From a virus, in the IMG/VR virus record IMGVR_UViG_3300042544_003795, positions 64,001 through 128,000 of that record: 64,000 nucleotides of DNA. One strand, 5' to 3'. The notes beneath the pieces were generated by a model. It did no database searches, was not told the origin of the DNA, and saw nothing but the letters and a program-made list of their open reading frames with translations. Of the stretch, positions 1 through 62,052 are shown one piece after another (positions within the stretch are counted from its first letter, which is position 1; each line of letters starts with the position of its first letter). The translations under genes and the position numbers were made by a program.

Positions 1-214
1 CATTATCATCGTTGCTTTCGTCGCCTCCTCCATCTCCTATTCCGTGACCTTCTCCACAGCCATCTCCCTCTCCATCGCCATCCCCAGATCCATATCCAAA
101 CCCCTCGCCCCAGTTGCACCCATGACCATTGCTAAATCCATGTGGATTTTCATAAATAGGCACAGATTCATCTATGATGAAATCCTTAAATTGGTTATTT
201 AGTAAATTATGCAT
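1..214 (-). CDS. Gly-rich repeat mini-protein, leader class B (3'-truncated by window edge)
   Basis: Not in ORF track; hand-translated from ATG 214: MHNLLNNQFKDFIIDESVPIYENPHGFSNGHGCNWGEGFGYGSGDGDGEG..., open to base 1. Confidence 0.85.
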   Translation of the reverse strand, partial: MHNLLNNQFKDFIIDESVPIYENPHGFSNGHGCNWGEGFGYGSGDGDGEGDGCGEGHGIGDGGGDESNDDN

Positions 215-234
215 AATTAAGTTAAATTCCATTA

Positions 235-510
235 TTAACATCTATCACAGTATCCTTCTCCAGTCCCAGCTCCATTACCTGTACCTAAACCCCAGCCAGA
301 GCCCTTCCACATCCCTATACCACTCCCATCACCCGAGCCTTTACAATCTGACTCTCCCCACGCATCTCCATCTCCATCTCCCCAGCCATATCCATATCCA
401 TCACCATCTTCATATCCACGGCCACTAGAGATTGCAATGGCATCTTCAAAAAGATACGGCGAGTCGCCTGCCATTAAACCTTTAAAATCGTTAATTAGTT
501 GAGTTTTCAT
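235..510 (-). CDS. Gly-rich repeat mini-protein, leader class B
   Basis: Start moved to ATG 510 (MKTQLINDFKGLMAGD...), matching paralog leaders; G-X repeat body. Confidence 0.85.
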   Translation of the reverse strand: MKTQLINDFKGLMAGDSPYLFEDAIAISSGRGYEDGDGYGYGWGDGDGDAWGESDCKGSGDGSGIGMWKGSGWGLGTGNGAGTGEGYCDRC

Positions 511-523
511 AAAAAAAATACAT

Positions 524-862
524 CTAGATCCAATGCCACCCTCCAAAGTCAACAACCCCATCCCCACTTCCTCTACCACTGCCACAACCAAAACCATCAC
601 CAACATTATAGCTATCTCCATAACCATTAGAGTGACCGTACCCATAACCAGAACCGTCTTCATTGCCAAATCCTGACCAGTACCCTTCTCCCTGTCCGTC
701 ACCACCCTCTTCACCATCTCCATCTCCGCTCCCAGATCCATAGCCAAAACCTATCCCGTTGCCACATCCAGAGCCATTGCTAAATCCAGTTAGGTCTTCA
801 GAAAGATCGAGAGATGCATCTACAACCAAGCTTTTAAATTTGTTAATTAGTAAAGTATTCAT
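524..862 (-). CDS. Gly-rich repeat mini-protein, leader class B
   Basis: MNTLLINKFKSLVVD...FSNGSG then G-X repeats. Confidence 0.88.
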   Translation of the reverse strand: MNTLLINKFKSLVVDASLDLSEDLTGFSNGSGCGNGIGFGYGSGSGDGDGEEGGDGQGEGYWSGFGNEDGSGYGYGHSNGYGDSYNVGDGFGCGSGRGSGDGVVDFGGWHWI

Positions 863-865
863 AAT

Positions 866-1162
866 TTAATTAATTACTACCCCATCTCCATCTCCATAAC
901 AAACTCCATTAATTACTACCCCGTCCCCATCCCCATCCCCATAACAATTTCCATTTCCATTTCCGAGTCCATTTCCTGATCCAAATCCATCGCCATCATT
1001 GTAGCCATAACTATCCTCACTCTCTTCTCCAACACCATAACAGAAACCTAGACCGAGACCGAACCCACGCCCATTACTCATTACAATCGAATTTTTAAAA
1101 AGATAAGCAGAATCGCTATCAGCGATTAAACCTTTAAATTGATTAATTAGTAAAGTATTCAT
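866..1162 (-). CDS. Gly-rich repeat mini-protein, leader class B
   Basis: Start moved to ATG 1162 (MNTLLINQFKGLIAD...); leader DNA nearly identical to that at 862. Confidence 0.88.
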   Translation of the reverse strand: MNTLLINQFKGLIADSDSAYLFKNSIVMSNGRGFGLGLGFCYGVGEESEDSYGYNDGDGFGSGNGLGNGNGNCYGDGDGDGVVINGVCYGDGDGVVIN

Positions 1163-1412
1163 AAATTTCAAGTCCCATACCTCTACCATTACCAGATCCA
1201 AACCCAGCTCCATTACCAGATCCAAATCCATGACCTGATCCCGGTCCATACCCAGTTCCATAACAATGTACTGATCGAGAGCCGTCTTCACCAAATCCTG
1301 ATCCATTTCCAAACCCCTGACCATCTATAGACCCTGAACCGTGTCCATGTTCACATGGTTCAAGTACAGGAGAGCTTGTAAATGCGTGGTGATTACAAAG
1401 AGAAAATTTCAT
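1143..1412 (-). CDS. Gly-rich repeat mini-protein, divergent leader class A
   Basis: MKFSLCNHHAF... then GxGxG repeats. Confidence 0.82.
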   Translation of the reverse strand: MKFSLCNHHAFTSSPVLEPCEHGHGSGSIDGQGFGNGSGFGEDGSRSVHCYGTGYGPGSGHGFGSGNGAGFGSGNGRGMGLEIYEYFTN

Positions 1413-1415
1413 AAT

Positions 1416-1664
1416 TTAAATTATCCAGTTAATTGTATACCCAGTACCGTCACCTGTACCATCACCTTTCCCCTTTCCTGATCCTTCATCATATCCAGAT
1501 GAATAACCAGAACCATCACCAGACCCAGCTCCATCAATAAACCCACAGCCAAACCCATAACCAAGCCCAGATCCATCACCTAACCCATAGCCAGACCCAG
1601 ATCCATCACCAGATCTACAGATCAAATCAGCAAAATCACCATGATGTCTATAAAATAAATTCAT
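1416..1664 (-). CDS. Gly-rich repeat mini-protein, leader class A
   Basis: MNLFYRHHGDFADLIC then GSGSGYG repeats. Confidence 0.88.
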   Translation of the reverse strand: MNLFYRHHGDFADLICRSGDGSGSGYGLGDGSGLGYGFGCGFIDGAGSGDGSGYSSGYDEGSGKGKGDGTGDGTGYTINWII

Positions 1665-1672
1665 ATTATCTA

Positions 1673-1924
1673 TTAAGACTCGTCTCCAGCTCCATCACCT
1701 AATCCATTGCAGTATCCTGATCCATCACCTAACCCATCTTCAAACATACTTTTAAGTCCAAATACACCATATCCACAACCAAACCCATAAATAGACCCAT
1801 AACCACTACCGAATCCATATGCATCACCAGATCCGTCGCCAGTTCCATGACCAGATCCAGATCCAAATCCAGATCCACAAATCAAATCAGCACAATATCC
1901 GTTATGTATATAAAGTAAATTCAT
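1673..1924 (-). CDS. Gly-rich repeat mini-protein, leader class A
   Basis: MNLLYIHNGYCADLIC then GSGFGSG repeats. Confidence 0.88.
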   Translation of the reverse strand: MNLLYIHNGYCADLICGSGFGSGSGHGTGDGSGDAYGFGSGYGSIYGFGCGYGVFGLKSMFEDGLGDGSGYCNGLGDGAGDES

Positions 1925-1967
1925 AAGTTAATCGCTGTTTCTAAAACCAAATCCATTTCCTGTACCA

Positions 1968-2315
1968 TCACCAAAGCCAATACATGTGCTGAACTTGTCT
2001 GCTACCCCCATCTCCCTCGCCGTCCCCATCTCCAGCACCATCGCCCTCTCCATATCCATCTCCAGATCCATCTCCAGATCCCTCTCCAGACCCAAAACCA
2101 CAAGAAGATCCCCACCCGTCACCATAGCCATCACCTTCACCATAACCATCTCCAGACCCAGAGCCTCCGCCTGAACCATAACTAAATCCGCATCCATCAC
2201 CAAAGCCAGCCGCGAAGCCACATCCATCACCATCACCATATCCAGATCTACCTCCATCGCCAAATCCATGGATTACATTAGGAGAGAATCCTTGATGTGC
2301 GTGAAGTAAATTCAT
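1968..2315 (-). CDS. Gly-rich repeat mini-protein, leader class A (probable frameshift near 2005-2009)
   Basis: Start moved to ATG 2315 (MNLLHAHQGFSPNVIHG...); a Gly-rich tail continues in another frame to 1928. Confidence 0.82.
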   Translation of the reverse strand: MNLLHAHQGFSPNVIHGFGDGGRSGYGDGDGCGFAAGFGDGCGFSYGSGGGSGSGDGYGEGDGYGDGWGSSCGFGSGEGSGDGSGDGYGEGDGAGDGDGEGDGGSRQVQHMYWLW

Positions 2316-2320
2316 AAAAT

Positions 2321-2353
2321 AAAAAAAGCGGAGCAGGGATATTCCTGCCCCGC
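2321..2353 (-). terminator. Intrinsic terminator between the DUF6948-like gene and the Gly-rich array
   Basis: Minus strand GCGGGGCAGG-AATATC-CCTGCTCCGC followed by T7. Confidence 0.85.
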
Positions 2354-2367
2354 AATTTTTCGTATTA

Positions 2368-2733
2368 CTATTCGACGAATTTAATGTAAGTAGCCTCGGC
2401 TTCTGGAGTAGTTGGGATATATTCAATAGCATTCGTCAGATAAACCTCTCCGGTTGCATTCAAACGGCCTCCTTTAATGCCGTCTTTAGCTACAGCAGAT
2501 AGACTTAGACCGCCGCCTTCCCATTTCCATAGTCGCAAGGCATTTTTTAGTTTCACTTCCATCGAATTAGTTGGGTTTACATATTCTACGTCTCCGATAT
2601 GAACACCAGCCGAGTATGTTCGAATGATACAGCGGCGACCTAGCATTGGATGAGGAGGGGAAACAGATGAGTTAAGCCCTGAAAACATAGAAGCTAACTG
2701 TTTGGCTTCGCCAATTGTCATATTGTCAATCAT
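2368..2733 (-). CDS. DUF6948-like phage protein
   Basis: MIDNMTIGEAKQL...IIRTYSAGVHIG...LKNALRLWKW...SLSAVAKDGI; start moved to 2733 because the longer ORF overlaps a tRNA. Confidence 0.8.
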   Translation of the reverse strand: MIDNMTIGEAKQLASMFSGLNSSVSPPHPMLGRRCIIRTYSAGVHIGDVEYVNPTNSMEVKLKNALRLWKWEGGGLSLSAVAKDGIKGGRLNATGEVYLTNAIEYIPTTPEAEATYIKFVE

Positions 2734-2770
2734 ATTATTATTTTGTTTTTGTTTTTTAACTAAGAAAAAA

Positions 2771-2846
2771 TGGTAGGCCATGATGGAATCGAACCATCGA
2801 CACAAGGATTATGAGTCCTCTGCTCTAACCGCTGAGCTAATGGCCT
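2771..2846 (-). tRNA. tRNA with CAT anticodon, most likely Ile2 (lysidine)
   Basis: AGGCCAT/ATGGCCT acceptor stem, anticodon arm GAGGA-CTCATAA-TCCTT, GTTCGA T-loop, encoded CCA. Confidence 0.93.
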
Positions 2847-7935: not shown

Positions 7936-8271
7936 TTAATCTCTGACATTTCTCATGCTTTCAGAGAAATAATCATACTCTTGCTGGAAGTCGATTTCCC
8001 ATGTGCCGGGAGACAATTTAATATCATTATGCCTATCAGCTATAGCGCAACGAACAGTGGTCTCAACTGAATTTTTTATAAAGCGCCTGTCCCCTTTTTT
8101 ATAAACATTCACTCCGGGTTTTAGATCTACGACGTGATGGTTGCCCGTTACTTCGCTGTCAGCAATTACAACATATTTACTTTCGATTTTCTCTTGTTCA
8201 GCTTCAGCAGGGAGACGAGACGAAAACAAAACACATTCACCGTGAACGATAGCTTTTTTTAATTTTTTCAT
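7936..8271 (-). CDS. His-motif beta protein commonly encoded beside DUF6745 genes
   Basis: HGEC, IADSEVTGNHH, H..I.L.PG.W, QQEYD...RNVRD; start moved to 8271 because a promoter overlaps 8296-8323. Confidence 0.78.
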   Translation of the reverse strand: MKKLKKAIVHGECVLFSSRLPAEAEQEKIESKYVVIADSEVTGNHHVVDLKPGVNVYKKGDRRFIKNSVETTVRCAIADRHNDIKLSPGTWEIDFQQEYDYFSESMRNVRD

Positions 8272-8295
8272 ATAAAGTAATAAGATGACTATTTG

Positions 8296-8323
8296 AGTAT
8301 ACACATTTTAGTGTTTTAGTCAA
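8296..8323 (-). promoter_or_regulatory. sigma70-type promoter
   Basis: TTGACT-N16-TATACT. Confidence 0.8.
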
Positions 8324-8342
8324 GACCTTTTTCAAAAAATCT

Positions 8343-8804
8343 TTATTTGTTTAAGTTTTTTATTAATGAATTACTGGAATTTATAACACCTTCTTTGATT
8401 GAAGTCCTAATCGTATTTCTCAAAGGTATTCTTAAAGAAGAAGTTACCGAATAAGAAAGAGAATTATCAATTAAATGACTCATGGGATTAAAAAAAGAAG
8501 AGTTTAGTAAATCCCAAGGTTCACGCCGAGTTTTTGCCAAAAGAGACATTTCTGTTAAATATCTTGTTTTTGCAATTACTTTTTGTTTATCAATATCCGC
8601 ATTCATCTCTCTGATTTTAGATTTTATTAATGGATACGCTTTAATACCATTAATATTTTCTGACATAGGATTTATGAAGGACAACATTATACCTGATGCA
8701 TTTTCAATCTCGCAGGATGACAGTAGAGAGACCCAAAACTCTTTTAAGATAGGATCTCTCAATGAAGCCCGAGCAGATTCGCCTAAAATAGAATTTTTAA
8801 TCAT
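8343..8804 (-). CDS. Ser-periodic array paralog, double-length
   Basis: Two S-x-x-x-S-rich halves; ends SSNSLIKNLNK like array members. Confidence 0.72.
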   Translation of the reverse strand: MIKNSILGESARASLRDPILKEFWVSLLSSCEIENASGIMLSFINPMSENINGIKAYPLIKSKIREMNADIDKQKVIAKTRYLTEMSLLAKTRREPWDLLNSSFFNPMSHLIDNSLSYSVTSSLRIPLRNTIRTSIKEGVINSSNSLIKNLNK

Positions 8805-9033
8805 TATTTAAATATTCTTTAAAATAAATACTGTTTAATTCTTCGACTACATTCCTACAACATGTTGGGTCCATAGAATTAGGGATCAATAAAGATCTCC
8901 AATGAAAATCTACTATATTTTTCCTAAGACTACTTTCAAGTGAAGAATTAATAGAGTCCAAAATAGGCCTACGAATACTGGAATTATATTCCCTTGGTAA
9001 AAACCTAATTTTATTTTTCAGTCTATATGACAT
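8797..9033 (-). CDS. Ser-periodic array paralog
   Basis: SSIRRPILDSINSSLESSL...; ends YLNND overlapping the next ATG. Confidence 0.72.
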   Translation of the reverse strand: MSYRLKNKIRFLPREYNSSIRRPILDSINSSLESSLRKNIVDFHWRSLLIPNSMDPTCCRNVVEELNSIYFKEYLNND

Positions 9034-9045
9034 ATAAGAAATATA

Positions 9046-10002
9046 TCAAGAAATCGAAAGGACATTTAACTCTCTGCCCCGGAATCTTTCTTTAATAGCG
9101 TCTTGCAGGGACCTGCAACGAGGAGAGACAGCTTCAACATGCCAAACTCCAGTAGTCTGATTAAGCATTTTCAAATGCGGAGCGAATTTCACCCCTACAA
9201 ATAATTTCTTCATATCCCAAAGTTCATACTCAGATTTTGTCCACCACTCCTCATCGTAATTTTCATAAGTGTCTATTTTAGTGCCCAACTCTAACATTCT
9301 CTCTACGCCGTATTTTTTGACAAAAGCCATTTTTACATCAGCATTTTTAATAGAATTATAATACTGAATATTTAATTCATGAGATGGAGTTTCAGCCAAT
9401 TCTTGAGGAACTGTTATTCCATCCAGTGACCATACATTGGGAGCGAAAGCTCCTGCATACTCAATAGCTGGACCATCGCTATCTGCATGGACTTTCCCTT
9501 CTTCATTGATTTTAATCTTCAATGGCTTTTGAGAGACAATACATACATGATCAAGAGGGAAAATCATTCCAAGTTTAGTAGAGTCTTCCCAAATTTTATA
9601 TTTAGCTAAAATATCATCTTGAACTTTAATTTTCAATTCATTAAAGACATAATCATAAAAAGAAAATAATGATGCACCGAAAGATCCATCTAGAAACGGA
9701 TTAACAAAATCAGCAAGTTTCATTCTCGTTTTACCACTTACGTAGTCCTCAACTCTCCCTAGGATCTCATTGACAGGAGTTCCCTCTAAAGCAATGTGAC
9801 AGGCAATCCATGCAAGAATAGGATTATCTACAATGATAACCGGTGTTTTTTTTCGATTCAGTAGTTCCGTTTGAATCTTATTAACAATATCTAGAGTCTC
9901 GTCATAGTCAAGACGGTCTGTATTATGACCGATAGCAATCCATTTTTTAATGTAATCCGCTTTAGCAGCTTCGTTTTCAGGAGTCAAAGATTTAATTTTC
10001 AT
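9046..10002 (-). CDS. DUF6745-like protein
   Basis: KSLTPE..A...Y..KW..IG..T..LD; W......G.IFP...VCIVSQKP; H...GPAIEY; W.LDGI.VP; I.NA.V....V..YG.ER. Confidence 0.8.
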   Translation of the reverse strand: MKIKSLTPENEAAKADYIKKWIAIGHNTDRLDYDETLDIVNKIQTELLNRKKTPVIIVDNPILAWIACHIALEGTPVNEILGRVEDYVSGKTRMKLADFVNPFLDGSFGASLFSFYDYVFNELKIKVQDDILAKYKIWEDSTKLGMIFPLDHVCIVSQKPLKIKINEEGKVHADSDGPAIEYAGAFAPNVWSLDGITVPQELAETPSHELNIQYYNSIKNADVKMAFVKKYGVERMLELGTKIDTYENYDEEWWTKSEYELWDMKKLFVGVKFAPHLKMLNQTTGVWHVEAVSPRCRSLQDAIKERFRGRELNVLSIS

Positions 10003-10006
10003 ATGT

Positions 10007-10213
10007 TTAAATATTTTTATATTGTTTATTTTCTACTTCTTTATATTCTAAAACTTTTTCGACATCTATACAGTTTAAAGCTTTTCTTTTTAACGAATGA
10101 GGACAATTAGCTCTATAAGCCTTCCAGACAATTTTACCATCATAATTTTGCAATTTAATGTGCCAATTTTTGATTAATCTAATTTGATTTCTTTTTTTAT
10201 TTTGAACAGTCAT
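10007..10213 (-). CDS. Hypothetical basic protein
   Basis: 68-aa ORF, 4-nt overlap with upstream gene. Confidence 0.65.
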   Translation of the reverse strand: MTVQNKKRNQIRLIKNWHIKLQNYDGKIVWKAYRANCPHSLKRKALNCIDVEKVLEYKEVENKQYKNI

Positions 10214-10392
10214 TTTATGAGGTTCATAATTTTATATTTCAACGGATCTATAATGCTCGCCGAGATCTCTCCGTCAAAAAAAGCATTGTCTATTATAAAG
10301 TCAACACTTTCTTTTTTAGAAATATTTGTGTACTCATGATCATCTTCAAATTTTTGTTTACACAGATCTAAATATTGATTAATCGTTTTCAT
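10210..10392 (-). CDS. Hypothetical protein
   Basis: 60-aa ORF coupled to the last array member. Confidence 0.65.
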   Translation of the reverse strand: MKTINQYLDLCKQKFEDDHEYTNISKKESVDFIIDNAFFDGEISASIIDPLKYKIMNLIK

Positions 10393-10612
10393 TTAATTTA
10401 TCAATTATATCATTTATTGAAAGATCTTTAACCATATTATTATCTGGATAGTTTATTAAATCATAAATTGAGCGTCGAATAGAAAATGCATTAAACGAAG
10501 AATGAAAAATTAAATCATTAATTAAAAACAGAAAAGAACCCTGTATTCCAAGGCACACTTTATGACCAATTATATCATTGACTTTATACTCGTTAATATT
10601 AGAAATTTTCAT
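10379..10612 (-). CDS. Ser-periodic array paralog
   Basis: Ends IIDKLNEND; 14-nt overlaps on both sides. Confidence 0.78.
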   Translation of the reverse strand: MKISNINEYKVNDIIGHKVCLGIQGSFLFLINDLIFHSSFNAFSIRRSIYDLINYPDNNMVKDLSINDIIDKLNEND

Positions 10613-10811
10613 TTAATTTGTTAATCATTTTTTGTGTTAATCTTCCAATTGAATTCCCGAATGGATTTTCAACTAAATGATAAATTGAATCATCTGTTAA
10701 ATCCTCAATTGAATGAAGAAATGGGTTTTGTATTAAATTCAAAATTTTCCATTTAACTGAATCATAAACTAAATTATAAGTTCCGTAACAGTACAAACTA
10801 AAACTTTTCAT
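10599..10811 (-). CDS. Ser-periodic array paralog
   Basis: VYDSV...HSI...DSIY...NSI; ends INKLNENF. Confidence 0.8.
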   Translation of the reverse strand: MKSFSLYCYGTYNLVYDSVKWKILNLIQNPFLHSIEDLTDDSIYHLVENPFGNSIGRLTQKMINKLNENF

Positions 10812-10995
10812 TCAATTGATCTATTAAATATTCTGTTGAATTACAGATTGAAATGAAATAACTATCAGAAAAATCTACGATTGAGTTCTCAATAGAAGGA
10901 ATTAATGGATTACTGATAGCGTATAAGATTGAATCCCAGACTGGAATTTTTACAGAACGCGAAACTCTACCATGAAGCGGATTAAAATCAATCAT
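10798..10995 (-). CDS. Ser-periodic array paralog
   Basis: RSVKIPVWDSI...PSIENSI; ends IDQLNEKF. Confidence 0.8.
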   Translation of the reverse strand: MIDFNPLHGRVSRSVKIPVWDSILYAISNPLIPSIENSIVDFSDSYFISICNSTEYLIDQLNEKF

Positions 10996-11197
10996 TTAAT
11001 TTGTTAATTGAATTTATAGATTGACGCAAGATTTTATTGCCAGTCGAAACTTGTACAACATTAGAAACAGTATTTTTAACTAAATAATAATTTGAATTTC
11101 TGAATGAACTGTATATAGAATCTATAGATGAAGAATCACTAATAGAATGGAATATACGTTCACTGATTGTAATTTTTATGTTATAAAGATTTCTCAT
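10988..11197 (-). CDS. Ser-periodic array paralog
   Basis: HSISDSSSIDSIYSSFRNS; ends INKLND. Confidence 0.8.
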   Translation of the reverse strand: MRNLYNIKITISERIFHSISDSSSIDSIYSSFRNSNYYLVKNTVSNVVQVSTGNKILRQSINSINKLND

Positions 11198-11402
11198 TTA
11201 GCTTTTTAATTAAATTTAGTTCTTTAATCGAATTTATAAATGAATCCTCTACTGAATTTTCACTTGAACCTCTCACTTTCGAAAATGTTGACTCCGAGAG
11301 AGAACAGAATAGTGAATAGTCAATCGAATTATAAATTATTAAACAAATTTGATTGTAAACAGATTCATTTATTAATTTTTGAACTTTATTAATACTTTTC
11401 AT
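11181..11402 (-). CDS. Ser-periodic array paralog
   Basis: ESVYNQI...NSI...NSVEDSFINSI; ends IKKLNEKSL. Confidence 0.8.
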   Translation of the reverse strand: MKSINKVQKLINESVYNQICLIIYNSIDYSLFCSLSESTFSKVRGSSENSVEDSFINSIKELNLIKKLNEKSL

Positions 11403-11562
11403 TCATTTTTTTAACTAAATTTTTAGCAGAATCTTTTACTGAATATTTGACAGGATCTCGACCCATAAAATATATAGGAGAAAAAAGATAATTCTTTAAA
11501 GAAAAAAGGGAATCTAATCCGCTAATTGAATTATAAACTGATGTCCAAATTTTATTTTTCAT
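11389..11562 (-). CDS. Ser-periodic array paralog (57 aa, below ORF-track cutoff)
   Basis: Hand-translated MKNKIWTSVYNSISGLDSLFSLKNYLFSPIYFMGRDPVKYSVKDSAKNLVKKMNEKY; fills the gap exactly. Confidence 0.8.
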   Translation of the reverse strand: MKNKIWTSVYNSISGLDSLFSLKNYLFSPIYFMGRDPVKYSVKDSAKNLVKKMNEKY

Positions 11563-11746
11563 TCAATTCTTTAATTAATTTTTGAGCAGAACTTTGAATT
11601 AAATTTTCAGAGGAATCTCTAACTGGAATTTCAATTAGAGTATAAATTAAATTTTGGACTGAATAATCAACAGAGTGACGTAGAGAATTATAAAGTAGAT
11701 TTGTTATTTTATTCCTTACTTCCCATCGTATATGAACACTTTGCAT
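11552..11746 (-). CDS. Ser-periodic array paralog
   Basis: NSLRHSVDYSVQN...PVRDSSEN; ends LIKELNEK. Confidence 0.8.
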   Translation of the reverse strand: MQSVHIRWEVRNKITNLLYNSLRHSVDYSVQNLIYTLIEIPVRDSSENLIQSSAQKLIKELNEK

Positions 11747-11963
11747 TTAAATTATCTATAAGAATTTTTGATGAATTTTGAATAGCTCGCCATATAAAAT
11801 TATTAACTGCATGTCCAACAGAATCCTGAAAAGAATAAAGAGTTGGATTTAGCATTGAAGTCGAAATTGATTTCCACATTAAATCAGAAATTAAATTACT
11901 TGTTTTAATAAGTTTTTCATTTACTTGATCATTATAAATGCGAATTTTATAAGAAGGTTTCAT
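11709..11963 (-). CDS. Ser-periodic array paralog
   Basis: KSISTSM...YSFQDSV...NSSKILIDNLNAK. Confidence 0.78.
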   Translation of the reverse strand: MKPSYKIRIYNDQVNEKLIKTSNLISDLMWKSISTSMLNPTLYSFQDSVGHAVNNFIWRAIQNSSKILIDNLNAKCSYTMGSKE

Positions 11964-11975
11964 TCTTTGTTTACT

Positions 11976-12359
11976 TTAGTTAGACTCCCAATCTCCTTCG
12001 CCATTTGTGAAATAAACATTTTTAAAATTTAATTGATTCAACATATTAGAACAGCATTCGCAAGGCTTACTCTGATTGAACTCTCCATTCCTGTCAATCC
12101 TTAATACAGCCAAAGAATATTTTCTGCAATCAGTCTTACCAAATTTAATGGCCGCAGCAAGTTCTGCATGGAGACGAGAGAAATCTTGATACCCATATTT
12201 TTTAATTTGAGGATGAGTCTTTTTTGAATTCACCCCTATTGATAATATATTATTACCTTTAAAAATAAACGCAATATGGAAACACCTGCTCTCACGAGAT
12301 AAGTTATCCCAAGCTAAAGTTTTAATTCTTTCTAAAACTTTTCTTTTTTTAATTATCAC
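11976..12359 (-). CDS. Cytidine/deoxycytidylate deaminase-fold Zn protein
   Basis: HAE and SKPCECC motifs. Confidence 0.82.
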   Translation of the reverse strand: MIIKKRKVLERIKTLAWDNLSRESRCFHIAFIFKGNNILSIGVNSKKTHPQIKKYGYQDFSRLHAELAAAIKFGKTDCRKYSLAVLRIDRNGEFNQSKPCECCSNMLNQLNFKNVYFTNGEGDWESN

Positions 12360-59194: not shown

Positions 59195-59222
59195 ATACTA
59201 TAACATATTTTAAAAAAGTCAA
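59195..59222 (-). promoter_or_regulatory. sigma70-type promoter
   Basis: TTGACT-N16-TAGTAT, 10 nt before ATG 59184. Confidence 0.65.
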
Positions 59223-60391
59223 GCTTTTTCTACTGATAGCTTTTCGATGTCAGACTTTAACATTTTATTCACAAGCTGATCAAAGTTACATTTTGGAAAC
59301 CAACCCAAATCTTTTCTAGCTAATGAGCTGTCTCCTAATAAAGTTTCTACTTCAGCTGGTCTATAAAACTTTTTATTGATAATTACTAAAGTTTTTTTAA
59401 TGCCATTTATACAAGCTACTAATTTTTCATCTTCAGGATTATTTGTTTCATTTTCCCATGAGCAATCTAATTTAATATAATTGAAAGATTTTTCTACAAA
59501 CTCTCTAATAGAATGTGTTTCATTAGAAGAGAAAACATATTCATTGGGAATACCTGAATAATCTTTATTATAAATATCTTGATTTAACATTCTCCATACC
59601 CCATCCATGAAATCTTCAGCATCGCTCCAGTCTCTTTTGGCATCTATATTTCCTAATTCTAAAGGAGAAAAGTCTAAAGAGTTATCTATACAATATTTTA
59701 TAGAAGAAACTTTTTTAGATATTTTTCTAGTGACAAATTCTTCACCTCTTCTCGTTCCTTCATGATTAAATAGCCAGCCTTGAATAGCATAAAGATTATA
59801 AGATTCTCTATAAACTTTTACAAGCTGTCTAGAAGCTGCCTTACTTGCTCCGTAAGGACTTCTAGGGCGTAAGGGATGAACCTCATCTTGAGGAAAATAT
59901 AAAACATTACCGAATTCTTCAGAAGATCCAGCTTGATATAAACGACAAGTAGGTTTATATAATCTGATAGCTTCCAATATATCAAGAACAGCTGTAGAAT
60001 TAGTCTGCCATGTTTGCCTAGCAAAATCCCAACTACTAGCAACAAAACTTTGAGCAGCAAAATTGATAAAATAATCAGGAAGTAGTTTTTCTACAATCCT
60101 AGAAATAGCATGAGGATCAGTCAAATCAAAATTAATGAGATGAAATCTATCTGATTTTACATGTTTAATATTTTCATGATTATAAACACTTAATCTTCTC
60201 ACTCCTCCAAAAATTAAAAAATCTGTATTGTCAAGTAAATAGTCAACCATATGACTTCCATCTTGACCAGTAACGCCTGTTATTATTACACAGGGCTTAC
60301 CATTGCGTATATTAACAGCTTCATCTATATTTAATATATTAGATGTGTCTATCTTTTTGCCATAATAAGTTTCTTGTAAATTCTCACTCAT
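59219..60391 (-). CDS. gmd: GDP-mannose 4,6-dehydratase
   Basis: ITGVTGQDGS, AAQS.V..S, PRSPYG.SK, LFNHE..RRG..FVTRKI, RDW, RPAEV..L.GD. Confidence 0.95.
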   Translation of the reverse strand: MSENLQETYYGKKIDTSNILNIDEAVNIRNGKPCVIITGVTGQDGSHMVDYLLDNTDFLIFGGVRRLSVYNHENIKHVKSDRFHLINFDLTDPHAISRIVEKLLPDYFINFAAQSFVASSWDFARQTWQTNSTAVLDILEAIRLYKPTCRLYQAGSSEEFGNVLYFPQDEVHPLRPRSPYGASKAASRQLVKVYRESYNLYAIQGWLFNHEGTRRGEEFVTRKISKKVSSIKYCIDNSLDFSPLELGNIDAKRDWSDAEDFMDGVWRMLNQDIYNKDYSGIPNEYVFSSNETHSIREFVEKSFNYIKLDCSWENETNNPEDEKLVACINGIKKTLVIINKKFYRPAEVETLLGDSSLARKDLGWFPKCNFDQLVNKMLKSDIEKLSVEKA

Positions 60392-60402
60392 TTTAATAAA
60401 TT

Positions 60403-62052
60403 TTAAGATTCGCAACTAGTACAGGTCATTAGATTCCTAGACAATTCCTGAGCAGGATTAGCTGATCTTTGGTAATACAATGTTTTAATTCCCATCTTCC
60501 AAGCTTCGATTAGTAAGTCACTTACTTCTTTCGGCTTTATATCTGGAGGAATCATAATATTCAAGCTCTGACTTTGATCAATAAATTTTTGTCTTTGAGC
60601 AGCTTGAATAATAATTTCTTTTTGACTGATTTCTCCAAAAGTTTTGAATACATCTTTTTCATCAGAAGAAAGAAAATCTAAATGTTGAACTGATCCACCT
60701 CTAATCAAAATGGATTTCCAAACTTCATCTGTATCATTCTTATACTTCTTTAGAACTTCTTTGAGGAATGGATTCTTGAAAGTGAAAGATCCCTTAGCGA
60801 GTTTCTTTACAAAGTAATTACTATTTAAAGGTTCTATACTCGGAGATACTTGCCCCAAAATGAATGATGAAGAAGTGGTAGGAGCAACAGCAATTGTTGT
60901 TACGTTTCTTCTCCCATAACCCTTGAGGAGTTCTGGCTCTCCGAATAAATCTGCGAGCTTTTTAGAAGCTTCATCTGCTCTCTTTCTGATAGTATCCCAT
61001 ATATGAGAATTAAGCATCTTAGCCTCTAAAGATTCAAAAGCAATCATTTGTGATTGTAGAAAAGAGTGCCATCCCAAAACTCCCATTCCTAAAGCTCTTT
61101 GATTTTTCGCAAATTCATGAGGAGCTTCCATAAATTTCATTCCTTGAGTTTTCTCAACAAACTCTTGATTTACAGTATCAAGGAAATAGATTAATGTCTC
61201 AATAGCATCAGTATTTCTAATCTCATCCCAATAAAGAAGATTCAAAGAAGATAAAACGCAAACAAAACTTTCATTACTGTTCGATTGAAGAGTTATTTCT
61301 GAACAAAGATTGCTTGAATTTATTTTGTATCCTTTATCTTTGTAAACTTGAGGAGCATTATTATTTACAGTATCAGTAAAGAAAATATATGGATACCCTG
61401 TTTCGAATCTTTTCTTTATAATCTTACCCCATATTCCTCTCTTATCTTTGTCCCCCTCTATCATCTTATTCATCCAGTCGTCTGTTATTGTTACACCAAT
61501 GCTCATATTCTGAATAGCATGACCTTCAGAACGAATCATAAGGAACTCTTCAATATCTGGATGTTCGACGGGAAGATAGGCTGCAAAGCTACCTCTACGA
61601 GCCGATCCCTGACTAACTACATCTGAAACTTTATCAAAAAGCTCCATAAAATGTGCAGCTCCACTGGATTCTCCCCCAGAACTTATTTTAGAACCTCTTT
61701 TGCGAAGGTCTCCAAAATAACCTGAAGTACCTCCTCCCATTTTAGACATGATACCTACTTCGCCGACCTTCCAAAGAATATCGGTCATTGTATCATCCAT
61801 ATGGGAATTGAAACAAGAAACAGGAAGACCTCTCTTATTCCCATAGTTAATCCACACTGGTGTACTTAAACTATAATATCCAAGAGAAGTGTACTTTTCA
61901 AACTTATCAGCAAACCCTTCAATGCCTAGAATATTCTCTGCATTTTTAGCTATTTCTTTTACCCTCTCCTCTGGAGATACACCTTCTTCTAAATAGCCTC
62001 TCTCTAAAAAGAGACGGCTGTGGCTATTTAGCCATTTATAAGCTTTTTCCAT
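60403..62052 (-). CDS. nrdA: Ribonucleotide reductase class I alpha subunit (short form)
   Basis: SC, GGGT, RRG..A.YL, SNLCSEI, LG.G.LG, APT.SSS, DQSQS.N, C-terminal CTSCE. Confidence 0.95.
   Translation of the reverse strand: MEKAYKWLNSHSRLFLERGYLEEGVSPEERVKEIAKNAENILGIEGFADKFEKYTSLGYYSLSTPVWINYGNKRGLPVSCFNSHMDDTMTDILWKVGEVGIMSKMGGGTSGYFGDLRKRGSKISSGGESSGAAHFMELFDKVSDVVSQGSARRGSFAAYLPVEHPDIEEFLMIRSEGHAIQNMSIGVTITDDWMNKMIEGDKDKRGIWGKIIKKRFETGYPYIFFTDTVNNNAPQVYKDKGYKINSSNLCSEITLQSNSNESFVCVLSSLNLLYWDEIRNTDAIETLIYFLDTVNQEFVEKTQGMKFMEAPHEFAKNQRALGMGVLGWHSFLQSQMIAFESLEAKMLNSHIWDTIRKRADEASKKLADLFGEPELLKGYGRRNVTTIAVAPTTSSSFILGQVSPSIEPLNSNYFVKKLAKGSFTFKNPFLKEVLKKYKNDTDEVWKSILIRGGSVQHLDFLSSDEKDVFKTFGEISQKEIIIQAAQRQKFIDQSQSLNIMIPPDIKPKEVSDLLIEAWKMGIKTLYYQRSANPAQELSRNLMTCTSCES

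Follow-up and report, generated by a model that had tools for sequence, protein, structure and literature searches.

The window analysed here is a stretch of 64,000 nucleotides (nt) from a virus, positions 64,001 to 128,000 of the IMG/VR record IMGVR_UViG_3300042544_003795, and the locus under study occupies its positions 7936-11963 on the minus strand. The locus holds a gene of the DUF6745 family, termed the core, a smaller conserved gene encoding a His-motif partner, and an array of short genes whose serine-periodic products are termed minis. All of the open reading frames (ORFs) named in an initial annotation of this DNA exist on the minus strand, including that at 11389-11562. The gene order is eight head-to-tail minis of 57-84 amino acids (aa), two unrelated small ORFs, the DUF6745 gene, two mini-type ORFs and the His-motif partner. 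The features are listed in that order, with expectation values (E) from profile searches and, where given, identity and the ratio of non-synonymous to synonymous divergence (pN/pS) relative to the related locus L005.

11709 to 11963, minus strand: mini 1, 84 aa, first of the upstream array; leave-one-out E 7e-7; 64% identical to its L005 counterpart although the cores are 97% identical.
11552 to 11746, minus strand: mini 2, 64 aa; leave-one-out E 5e-12; overlaps the preceding gene by 38 nt.
11389 to 11562, minus strand: mini 3, 57 aa; leave-one-out E 8e-8; absent from L005, where the best match is 36% identical.
11181 to 11402, minus strand: mini 4, 73 aa; leave-one-out E 3e-9.
10988 to 11197, minus strand: mini 5, 69 aa; leave-one-out E 2e-3; 77% identical to its L005 counterpart, pN/pS 1.6.
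10798 to 10995, minus strand: mini 6, 65 aa; leave-one-out E 4e-8.
10599 to 10811, minus strand: mini 7, 70 aa, used in the complex model; leave-one-out E 5e-9.
10379 to 10612, minus strand: mini 8, 77 aa; leave-one-out E 8e-4.
10210 to 10392, minus strand: small ORF, 60 aa, not a mini, starting from the same overlapping junction; mini-profile E 1.3; 97% identical in L005, pN/pS 0.07.
10007 to 10213, minus strand: small ORF, 68 aa, not a mini; no mini-profile match; 99% identical in L005, pN/pS 0.08.
9046 to 10002, minus strand: DUF6745 core, 318 aa, without an internal tetrad tract; PF20530 match of 38.7 bits.
8797 to 9033, minus strand: probable diverged mini, 78 aa, a marginal member; profile E 0.045 against all ORFs, 4e-5 as a single test, leave-one-out 0.2.
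8343 to 8804, minus strand: mini-type protein, 153 aa; residues 101-153 E 3e-9, residues 2-20 and 9-69 E 0.006-0.013.
7936 to 8271, minus strand: His-motif partner, 111 aa, of the phrog_27831 type; the open frame extends to a GTG at 8304 (122 aa).

Leave-one-out profiles searched against the 588 ORFs of the window recovered nine of the ten minis (E 5e-12 to 2e-3). The minis are therefore alignable to each other and, judged by these profiles, the eight upstream ORFs and the 153-aa ORF are one family whose paralogy is beyond chance. The two further paralogs that had been proposed downstream of the core, one of them double-length, stood only in part: the C-terminal half of the 153-aa protein is clearly a mini, but its N-terminal half matches weakly and the 78-aa ORF is marginal. 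The position of the latter is kept in L005, L187, L188 and L189. The small ORFs at 10210-10392 and 10007-10213 had been described as unrelated to the minis, in agreement with their mini-profile E values above 1.

Spacings between serine residues in the minis peak at 4, 8 and 12 (z 4.5, 2.5 and 3.0), as do those between hydrophobic residues (z 4.7, 6.5 and 4.2), and a hydrophobic residue follows serine at +1, +5 and +9 (z 5.3, 4.9 and 3.3). The period of four claimed for serine and hydrophobic residues is thus significant (z 4.5-6.5), whereas no period-4 pattern was seen in eight neighbouring small ORFs. The window array is the most diverged or degraded version of such an array seen, with a periodicity that survives only statistically, and it extends the mini family to cases missed by simple repeat finders. 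Pfam has no model for the four-residue repeat. The only matches of the mini profile among PDB sequences, at E 0.02, were to V-ATPase subunit E, along its long helix, and were rejected as not significant.

Neighbouring genes of the array overlap by 8-38 nt, always 2 modulo 3. The codons of the K-L-N-E-K motif read AAATTAAATGAAAA and include the ATG-AAA of the next gene, an arrangement which, from the sequence, suggests coupled translation. The initial annotation had also described a common end to the minis (I..LN). The L-N pair is indeed nearly invariant, but its conservation is partly forced because the ATG of the next gene lies inside those codons.

Four relatives with cores 96.5-98.4% identical to that of the window keep its gene order, with 7, 8, 8 and 9 minis in their upstream arrays against 8 in the window. 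Between the window and L005 the flanking genes are 94-99% identical and the minis 64% to 99%; one mini is found only in the window and two only in L005. Pooled pN/pS against L005 was 0.50 for the minis and 0.07 for eight neighbouring genes, an approximately seven-fold difference. Individual values were 0.18-0.40 for five minis and near or above 1 for three (mini 1, 1.1; mini 5, 1.6; the 78-aa ORF, 0.95). This pattern and the gain and loss of array members together indicate that the minis, which are already called as genes and clustered in public collections, are coding, weakly constrained or partly diversifying, and swapped as whole cassettes. Over 8343-11963, pS relative to L005 was lower in the minis (0.136) than in the flanking genes (0.259) while non-synonymous divergence was higher. 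The low pS of the minis could have arisen from gene overlap, gene conversion or recent cassette exchange.

The core matches PF20530 over residues 142-238 (E 8e-10), its 38.7 bits exceeding the gathering score of 27 bits, and phrog_31813 was matched by 14 of 20 aligned core homologs. More than 200 homologs of approximately 320 aa were found in metagenomes, many on contigs of 50-260 kb, and the alignment with gp174 of Microcystis phage Ma-LMM01 was weak but significant (E 2e-7). The core model has a predicted local distance difference test score (pLDDT) of 90.8. A shape search of the ESM Atlas with the core returned DUF6745 clusters (template modelling score, TM, 0.74). Foldseek of the core against PDB yielded nothing at E <= 0.001, and the best PDB match of a wide VIA-align search had a Z of 4.7, with all matches on the helical N-terminal domain. 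Also in the ESM Atlas, a cyanobacterial cluster of 62 members fuses DUF6745 to LRR_4/LRR_8 repeats; the scaffold is therefore combined in bacteria with a different binding-repeat module.

In 64 of 66 related loci the core has a homolog of the partner as its neighbour, on either side and usually within 100 bp. In the window the two genes are 742 bp apart with two minis in between. The window partner probably starts at the ATG at 8271 (111 aa), as called in relatives, rather than at the GTG at 8304. Residues G11, E40, G43, H46, H81, G89, E98, D100, V109 and D111 are invariant in the partner alignment. phrog_27831 was matched by 12 of 22 aligned partner homologs (best E 8e-11) and by the window partner alone at E 0.0055; BLASTP against Ma-LMM01 gp175 gave E 2e-4, with the motifs E..TG.HH ... 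QQEY in common. The partner model has a pLDDT of 89.1. Foldseek against PDB and a profile search against PDB sequences gave no match for the partner, and the cupin fold that had been suspected was not confirmed (VIA-align best Z 3.5). The families of core and partner, phrog_31813 and phrog_27831, are both annotated as of unknown function.

When longer proteins were searched with the mini profile, most of the best 120 matches were found to carry PF20530. In canonical examples (P0123, P0136, P0138 and P0201) a conserved N-terminal domain is separated from the DUF6745 domain by a long (S-V-x-D/N)n tract. The initial annotation had described an internal tetrad tract in many DUF6745 proteins, and it was seen here between their N- and C-terminal domains. 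The same source held that the window core has no tract, in accordance with a tract score of 0 and with alignment A3, where both domains are present and joined by a short non-repeat linker. The alignment with P0109 and the sequence of L048 place the tract insertion site at approximately residues 73-95 of the window core; the QVxD tracts of P0109, which is 49% identical to the window core, and of L048 fall exactly at its linker of 20-30 aa. Although common among DUF6745 proteins, the internal tract does not enter into the Pfam definition; the window core does not share the canonical architecture.

When only the eight window minis were used to build the profile, it matched 120 of 120 native tract proteins, 12 of 120 after reversal and none of 120 after shuffling. 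The match therefore depends upon residue order and not merely upon composition, and the minis can be aligned by profile with the internal repeats of DUF6745 proteins. Because this set of 120 had itself been selected by the mini profile, the test was repeated on cores chosen via the core domain. The window-only profile then matched two of nine tract-bearing cores (E 2e-27 and 2e-6) and none of 42 tract-less cores; the remaining tract-bearing cores use other repeat dialects (Q-L, S-L and A-V). The near-perfect SVxN minis of locus L003 were matched by the window mini profile with E values of 1e-14 to 2e-5. An unbiased scan of DNA for SVW-type repeats located 35 tracts in DUF6745 cores and 38 mini ORFs. 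Another family, of 228-293 aa, accounted for 34 further tracts, and 18 ORFs were truncated at the ends of loci.

The association of arrays with tract-less cores was examined by a core-based search of viral contigs. A single-protein core query confirmed no locus among these contigs, whereas alignment A3 as query gave 62 loci, representing 51 distinct full-length cores. An array was scored where at least two mini-type ORFs lay within 10 kb of the core. Nearby minis accompanied none of the nine tract-bearing cores but were present, in numbers of up to 26, at 28 of the 42 tract-less ones (Fisher p 2.7e-4). Among individual comparisons the most informative is that between sister loci: L048 has a QV tract and no minis, whereas L037 and L034 have no tract and four QV-type minis each. 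Locus L184, found by starting from minis, is an independent and distant case, in which a tract-less core 25% identical to that of the window is flanked by 20 SV-type minis. Each array possesses its own N- and C-terminal caps (MTLKDSV...LIKSHDT, MKRSLNNSV...NKINETIT, MNKINDSV...DYFEQK), and the repeat dialect differs among arrays (SVxN, QVxD, QLxS, EVWD).

Fourteen further mini-bearing viral records were checked in full. A core was present in four, and the other ten were mostly fragments of 20-50% completeness, the exceptions being a record of 5 kb that is rated as complete and another with a rating of 81%, with ORFs of 200-207 aa that may belong to the other tract family. Apart from the 5-kb record, no array was seen in any complete record without a core.

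Mini 7 and the core were modelled as a complex. The interface score derived from predicted aligned errors (ipSAE) was 0.72, 0.68 and 0.72 in the runs against 0.00 for the best of three controls, at least 91% of contacts were common to the runs, and the partner-chain pLDDT was 70-73. In calibration of the tool, 58 of 80 solved complexes and 2 of 110 mismatched pairs attained this mark; as own, unpaired alignments were supplied, these counts are only approximate here. On the mini, the contacts of lowest predicted error fall in the cap G-R-L-T-Q-K-M-I-N-K-L-N (residues 56-67); on the core they involve residues 61-65, 93-105 and 186-190. In tract-bearing relatives a covalent tract would come back into the core at residues 93-105. 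The interaction between mini and core proposed in the initial annotation was thus predicted by the model, which supports, but does not demonstrate, binding of minis to the core in trans.

The simplest account of these observations is a split DUF6745 module, to which we assign a probability of roughly 0.55: core and partner would make up a hub, to whose vacated site a library of separately encoded tract proteins would bind. In most members of the family a single protein comprises, in this order, an N-terminal helical domain, a tetrad tract of variable length, in which two positions are free and the other two are fixed as S-V, Q-V or Q-L, and a C-terminal domain. In the lineage of the window the tract would have been lost from the core, and the same repeat is encoded by approximately ten separate genes, of 57-153 aa, placed around it. 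Each mini would most likely bind the core non-covalently via its conserved C-terminal cap (L..MI.KLN), the predicted docking groove being formed by the three core segments given above, at the place where a tract in cis would join the core again. In this way a single conserved hub could carry any of several variable repeat surfaces. The L-N-E-K codons of one mini, holding the ATG of the next gene, would couple translation along the array, and the rapid gain, loss and replacement of whole minis would probably proceed through recombination at the repeated junction.

We infer a role for the variable surfaces in recognising variable targets, most plausibly proteins of the host or of rival phages in a contest of defence and counter-defence, because of the accessory-gene setting, the fast turnover of the minis, a parallel with gp54 of phage Tweety and the LRR fusions on bacterial DUF6745. 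Beyond this, it is possible, and is offered tentatively, that core and partner act as a hub loaded in trans with interchangeable repeat subunits, so that a single effector would acquire a repertoire of recognition surfaces against host defences or rival phages.

A number of observations weigh against the split-module account. The tract state changes only three times on the tree, giving three independent pairs, and the contrast between tract-bearing and tract-less cores therefore cannot reach significance once relatedness is allowed for. Fewer than two minis lie within 10 kb of 14 of the 42 tract-less cores (L001, L026, L027, L028 and L041, for example), so that a core can exist without a nearby array. 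Tetrad tracts also occur in DUF7666-like proteins, in S8 peptidases and in the family of 228-293 aa; being present in several scaffolds, the tract is therefore not a DUF6745-only module, and the minis might serve other partners. The forced component in the conservation of the LN end, described above, counts in the same direction. The complex score is the model's own confidence, obtained from unpaired own alignments, and neither core nor partner gives a functional clue from PDB (best Z 4.7 and 3.5).

The initial proposal of a variable tract turned into a trans-acting library consequently fares unevenly: tract homology, the co-location of minis with tract-less cores and modelled docking speak for it, but the contrast rests on approximately three independent changes. 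The same limit applies to the co-occurrence of arrays with tract-less DUF6745 genes, where 28 of 42 against none of nine is set against about three independent contrasts and ten fragmentary or small records. Three outcomes had been named as contrary to the proposal, namely minis that cannot be aligned to each other or to the tracts, the absence of any predicted or observed interaction, and arrays occurring independently of DUF6745; two were clearly not encountered, and the third was excluded only in part.

As side observations on the wider distribution of these tracts, a DUF7666 protein encoded just downstream of the minis of L003 (L003 8969-9616) has an A-A-x-x tract, and S-V-x-D tracts were recorded in S8 peptidases and in the 228-293 aa family (P0124 and L186 type), one member showing a weak DUF7666 match.

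The main rival, which we regard as unlikely, holds that the minis derive from the tract but now act independently, for instance in the role of host-protein decoys or inhibitors or as products of a self-amplifying repeat cassette, and that they lie beside the core only because it was their birthplace. It would accommodate the 14 tract-less cores with no nearby minis, arrays that in some loci lie 3-9 kb from the core, tetrad tracts on several unrelated scaffolds and a cap conservation partly forced by gene overlap. It accounts less readily for a complex model that passes its controls with contacts centred on the vacated tract site, for the absence of minis from all nine tract-bearing cores, for the repetition of the pairing in the distant lineage L184, or for the agreement in repeat dialect between minis and the nearest tract-bearing core (L037 against L048).

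Less probable again is the reverse direction of change, in which free-standing minis are older and tract-bearing DUF6745 proteins arose by capture of a mini; the components would be the same and only their history would differ. Midpoint rooting leaves all deep branches (L060/L061, L054 and L062-L067) tract-bearing, canonical Pfam members including bacterial ones carry tracts, and tract-less cores keep a short, remnant-like linker with period-4 hydrophobic residues, the last being a reading of the alignment with no statistic attached. Against these stand an unrooted tree on which the tract state changes only three times, the nesting of tract-bearing L048 within an otherwise tract-less clade, and the occurrence of the tract module in several scaffolds, as expected of a mobile insert.

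It is very improbable that the mini ORFs, instead of being real genes, are what is left of expanded repeat DNA that has no function and is decaying. Their high divergence, and pN/pS values near or above 1 for mini 1, mini 5 and the 78-aa ORF, are what decay would produce, but frames and the same start/stop junction are intact in five related phages, pN/pS is 0.18-0.40 for five minis, the same architecture with lineage-specific N- and C-terminal caps occurs in dozens of phage lineages, and the minis are called and clustered as genes in public collections. Ribosomal frameshifting at the A-rich overlapping junction, sometimes joining neighbouring minis into longer variable tract proteins, is scarcely credible: although all overlaps are 2 modulo 3 within the A-rich AAATTAAATGAAAA and the 153-aa ORF looks like a two-unit fusion, junctions in other lineages such as L003 do not overlap (genes 1-2 nt apart) and the plain reading is termination-reinitiation coupling.

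Pairs of DUF6745/phrog_31813 and phrog_27831 genes, exemplified by gp174 and gp175 of Ma-LMM01, resemble the window in that the two genes are neighbours almost everywhere. The difference lies in the tract, which is inside the protein in most DUF6745 members; in the window it is absent from the core and represented by approximately ten separate genes. Ma-LMM01 itself was considered as a cultured example of the split layout and rejected, its tandem small genes being a different family. These genes (L007 97-1398, MAP_151-157) overlap in tandem, encode 54-80 aa products (MKIIN ... FYYRL ... YF.EDN), lie approximately 13 kb from gp174/gp175 and do not belong to the tetrad family. In the literature searched, no paper mentions DUF6745 or PF20530, and a split arrangement of hub and mini-library was not found.

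In phage hub-and-adaptor sets, such as branched tailspikes, several variable proteins dock on one conserved protein via a common motif. These sets share with the window a conserved hub, paralogous variable subunits and a common docking end, the last being predicted in the present case. They are, however, receptor-binding structures of the virion with known folds, whereas the window proteins have no known fold and are encoded among accessory and nucleotide-metabolism genes; nothing indicates that the window module is part of the virion.

A parallel in design is provided by gp54 of mycobacteriophage Tweety, a tunable counter-defence protein which, with Che8 gp57 and PMC gp51, contains 15-48 tetrapeptide repeats whose number varies between phages (PMC2884959, PMC9262239). 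Changes in the repeat number of gp54 allow Tweety to escape the Phrann gp29/gp30 defence (PMC2884959, PMC9262239). As in the DUF6745 tracts, the tetrads of gp54 are central, have two fixed and two variable positions and lie between conserved N- and C-terminal flanks. The repeat is A-A-x-x (PMC2884959) as opposed to S-V-x-x, and gp54 is one protein for which no gene array or partner has been described. Membership of gp54 in the family was rejected, as no Pfam match was obtained, PF20530 included (L070 1145-2269). The resemblance is in design only, with no relatedness shown.

The repeats of gp54 have been compared with those of VR2 of Bordetella phage BMP-1 in the Tweety paper (PMC2884959). Diversity-generating retroelements and VR2 have in common with the window localised hypervariation in a phage accessory protein. 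The window differs in that variation takes the form of gain, loss and divergence of whole genes and of change in repeat units, and template-directed mutagenesis is not indicated. No reverse transcriptase was found among approximately 33 window proteins scanned, a count that does not amount to a systematic search of the window.

DUF6745 and its partner constitute a very common and wholly unstudied phage accessory pair, and in the split form an internal repeat that lacked an explanation is resolved into distinct components, namely a hub, a partner and approximately ten candidate plug-in subunits, for which a docking motif is predicted. If docking is true, these viruses would diversify a binding surface through a multigene library instead of within-gene variation, a strategy not found in the literature searched. 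This would be a protein-level, multi-gene alternative to the tuning of repeats within a gene, as in Tweety gp54, or to mutagenesis by diversity-generating retroelements, and what each mini binds in the host would provide a handle on the role of the family. If docking is not true, few gene sets in these large phages change as fast as the arrays, which would still be good candidates for host interaction or anti-defence.

The window is part of a large, uncultured phage genome of low G+C content (~29%), with nearly all ORFs of at least 150 aa carried on the minus strand. It encodes a DnaE-type polymerase, DnaB, ribonucleotide reductase, RNA ligase and many sugar-modification enzymes, together with three tRNAs. 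The locus at 7936-11963 (minus strand) sits in an accessory region, with a deaminase-like gene (11976-12359) on one side and small unknown genes on the other. Neither DNA similarity of the region nor tblastn of the core gave a match among 50,697 phage records, and Ma-LMM01 gp174 as query against the phage collection matched its own relatives only.

A long run of glycosyltransferases, FkbM-type methyltransferases, a nucleoside diphosphate (NDP)-sugar enzyme fused to a HAD domain and related enzymes occupies positions 13699-45000 of the window on the same strand, and a GDP-mannose dehydratase-like gene lies at 59219-60415. These genes suggest an elaborate sugar-modification pathway of the phage.

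A second layout of a constant gene plus a tandem library was observed at positions 1-2805 (minus strand), where G+C content is 42% as against 29% elsewhere in the window. A DUF6948 gene at 2368-2805 (69.9 bits) is followed by approximately seven to eight small genes, whose products combine a short conserved head (MNLL..H.G or MNTLLIN.FK) with a body of Gly-X repeats (GDGSGYG...). The DUF6948 gene is present at the equivalent position in relatives L187 and L189.

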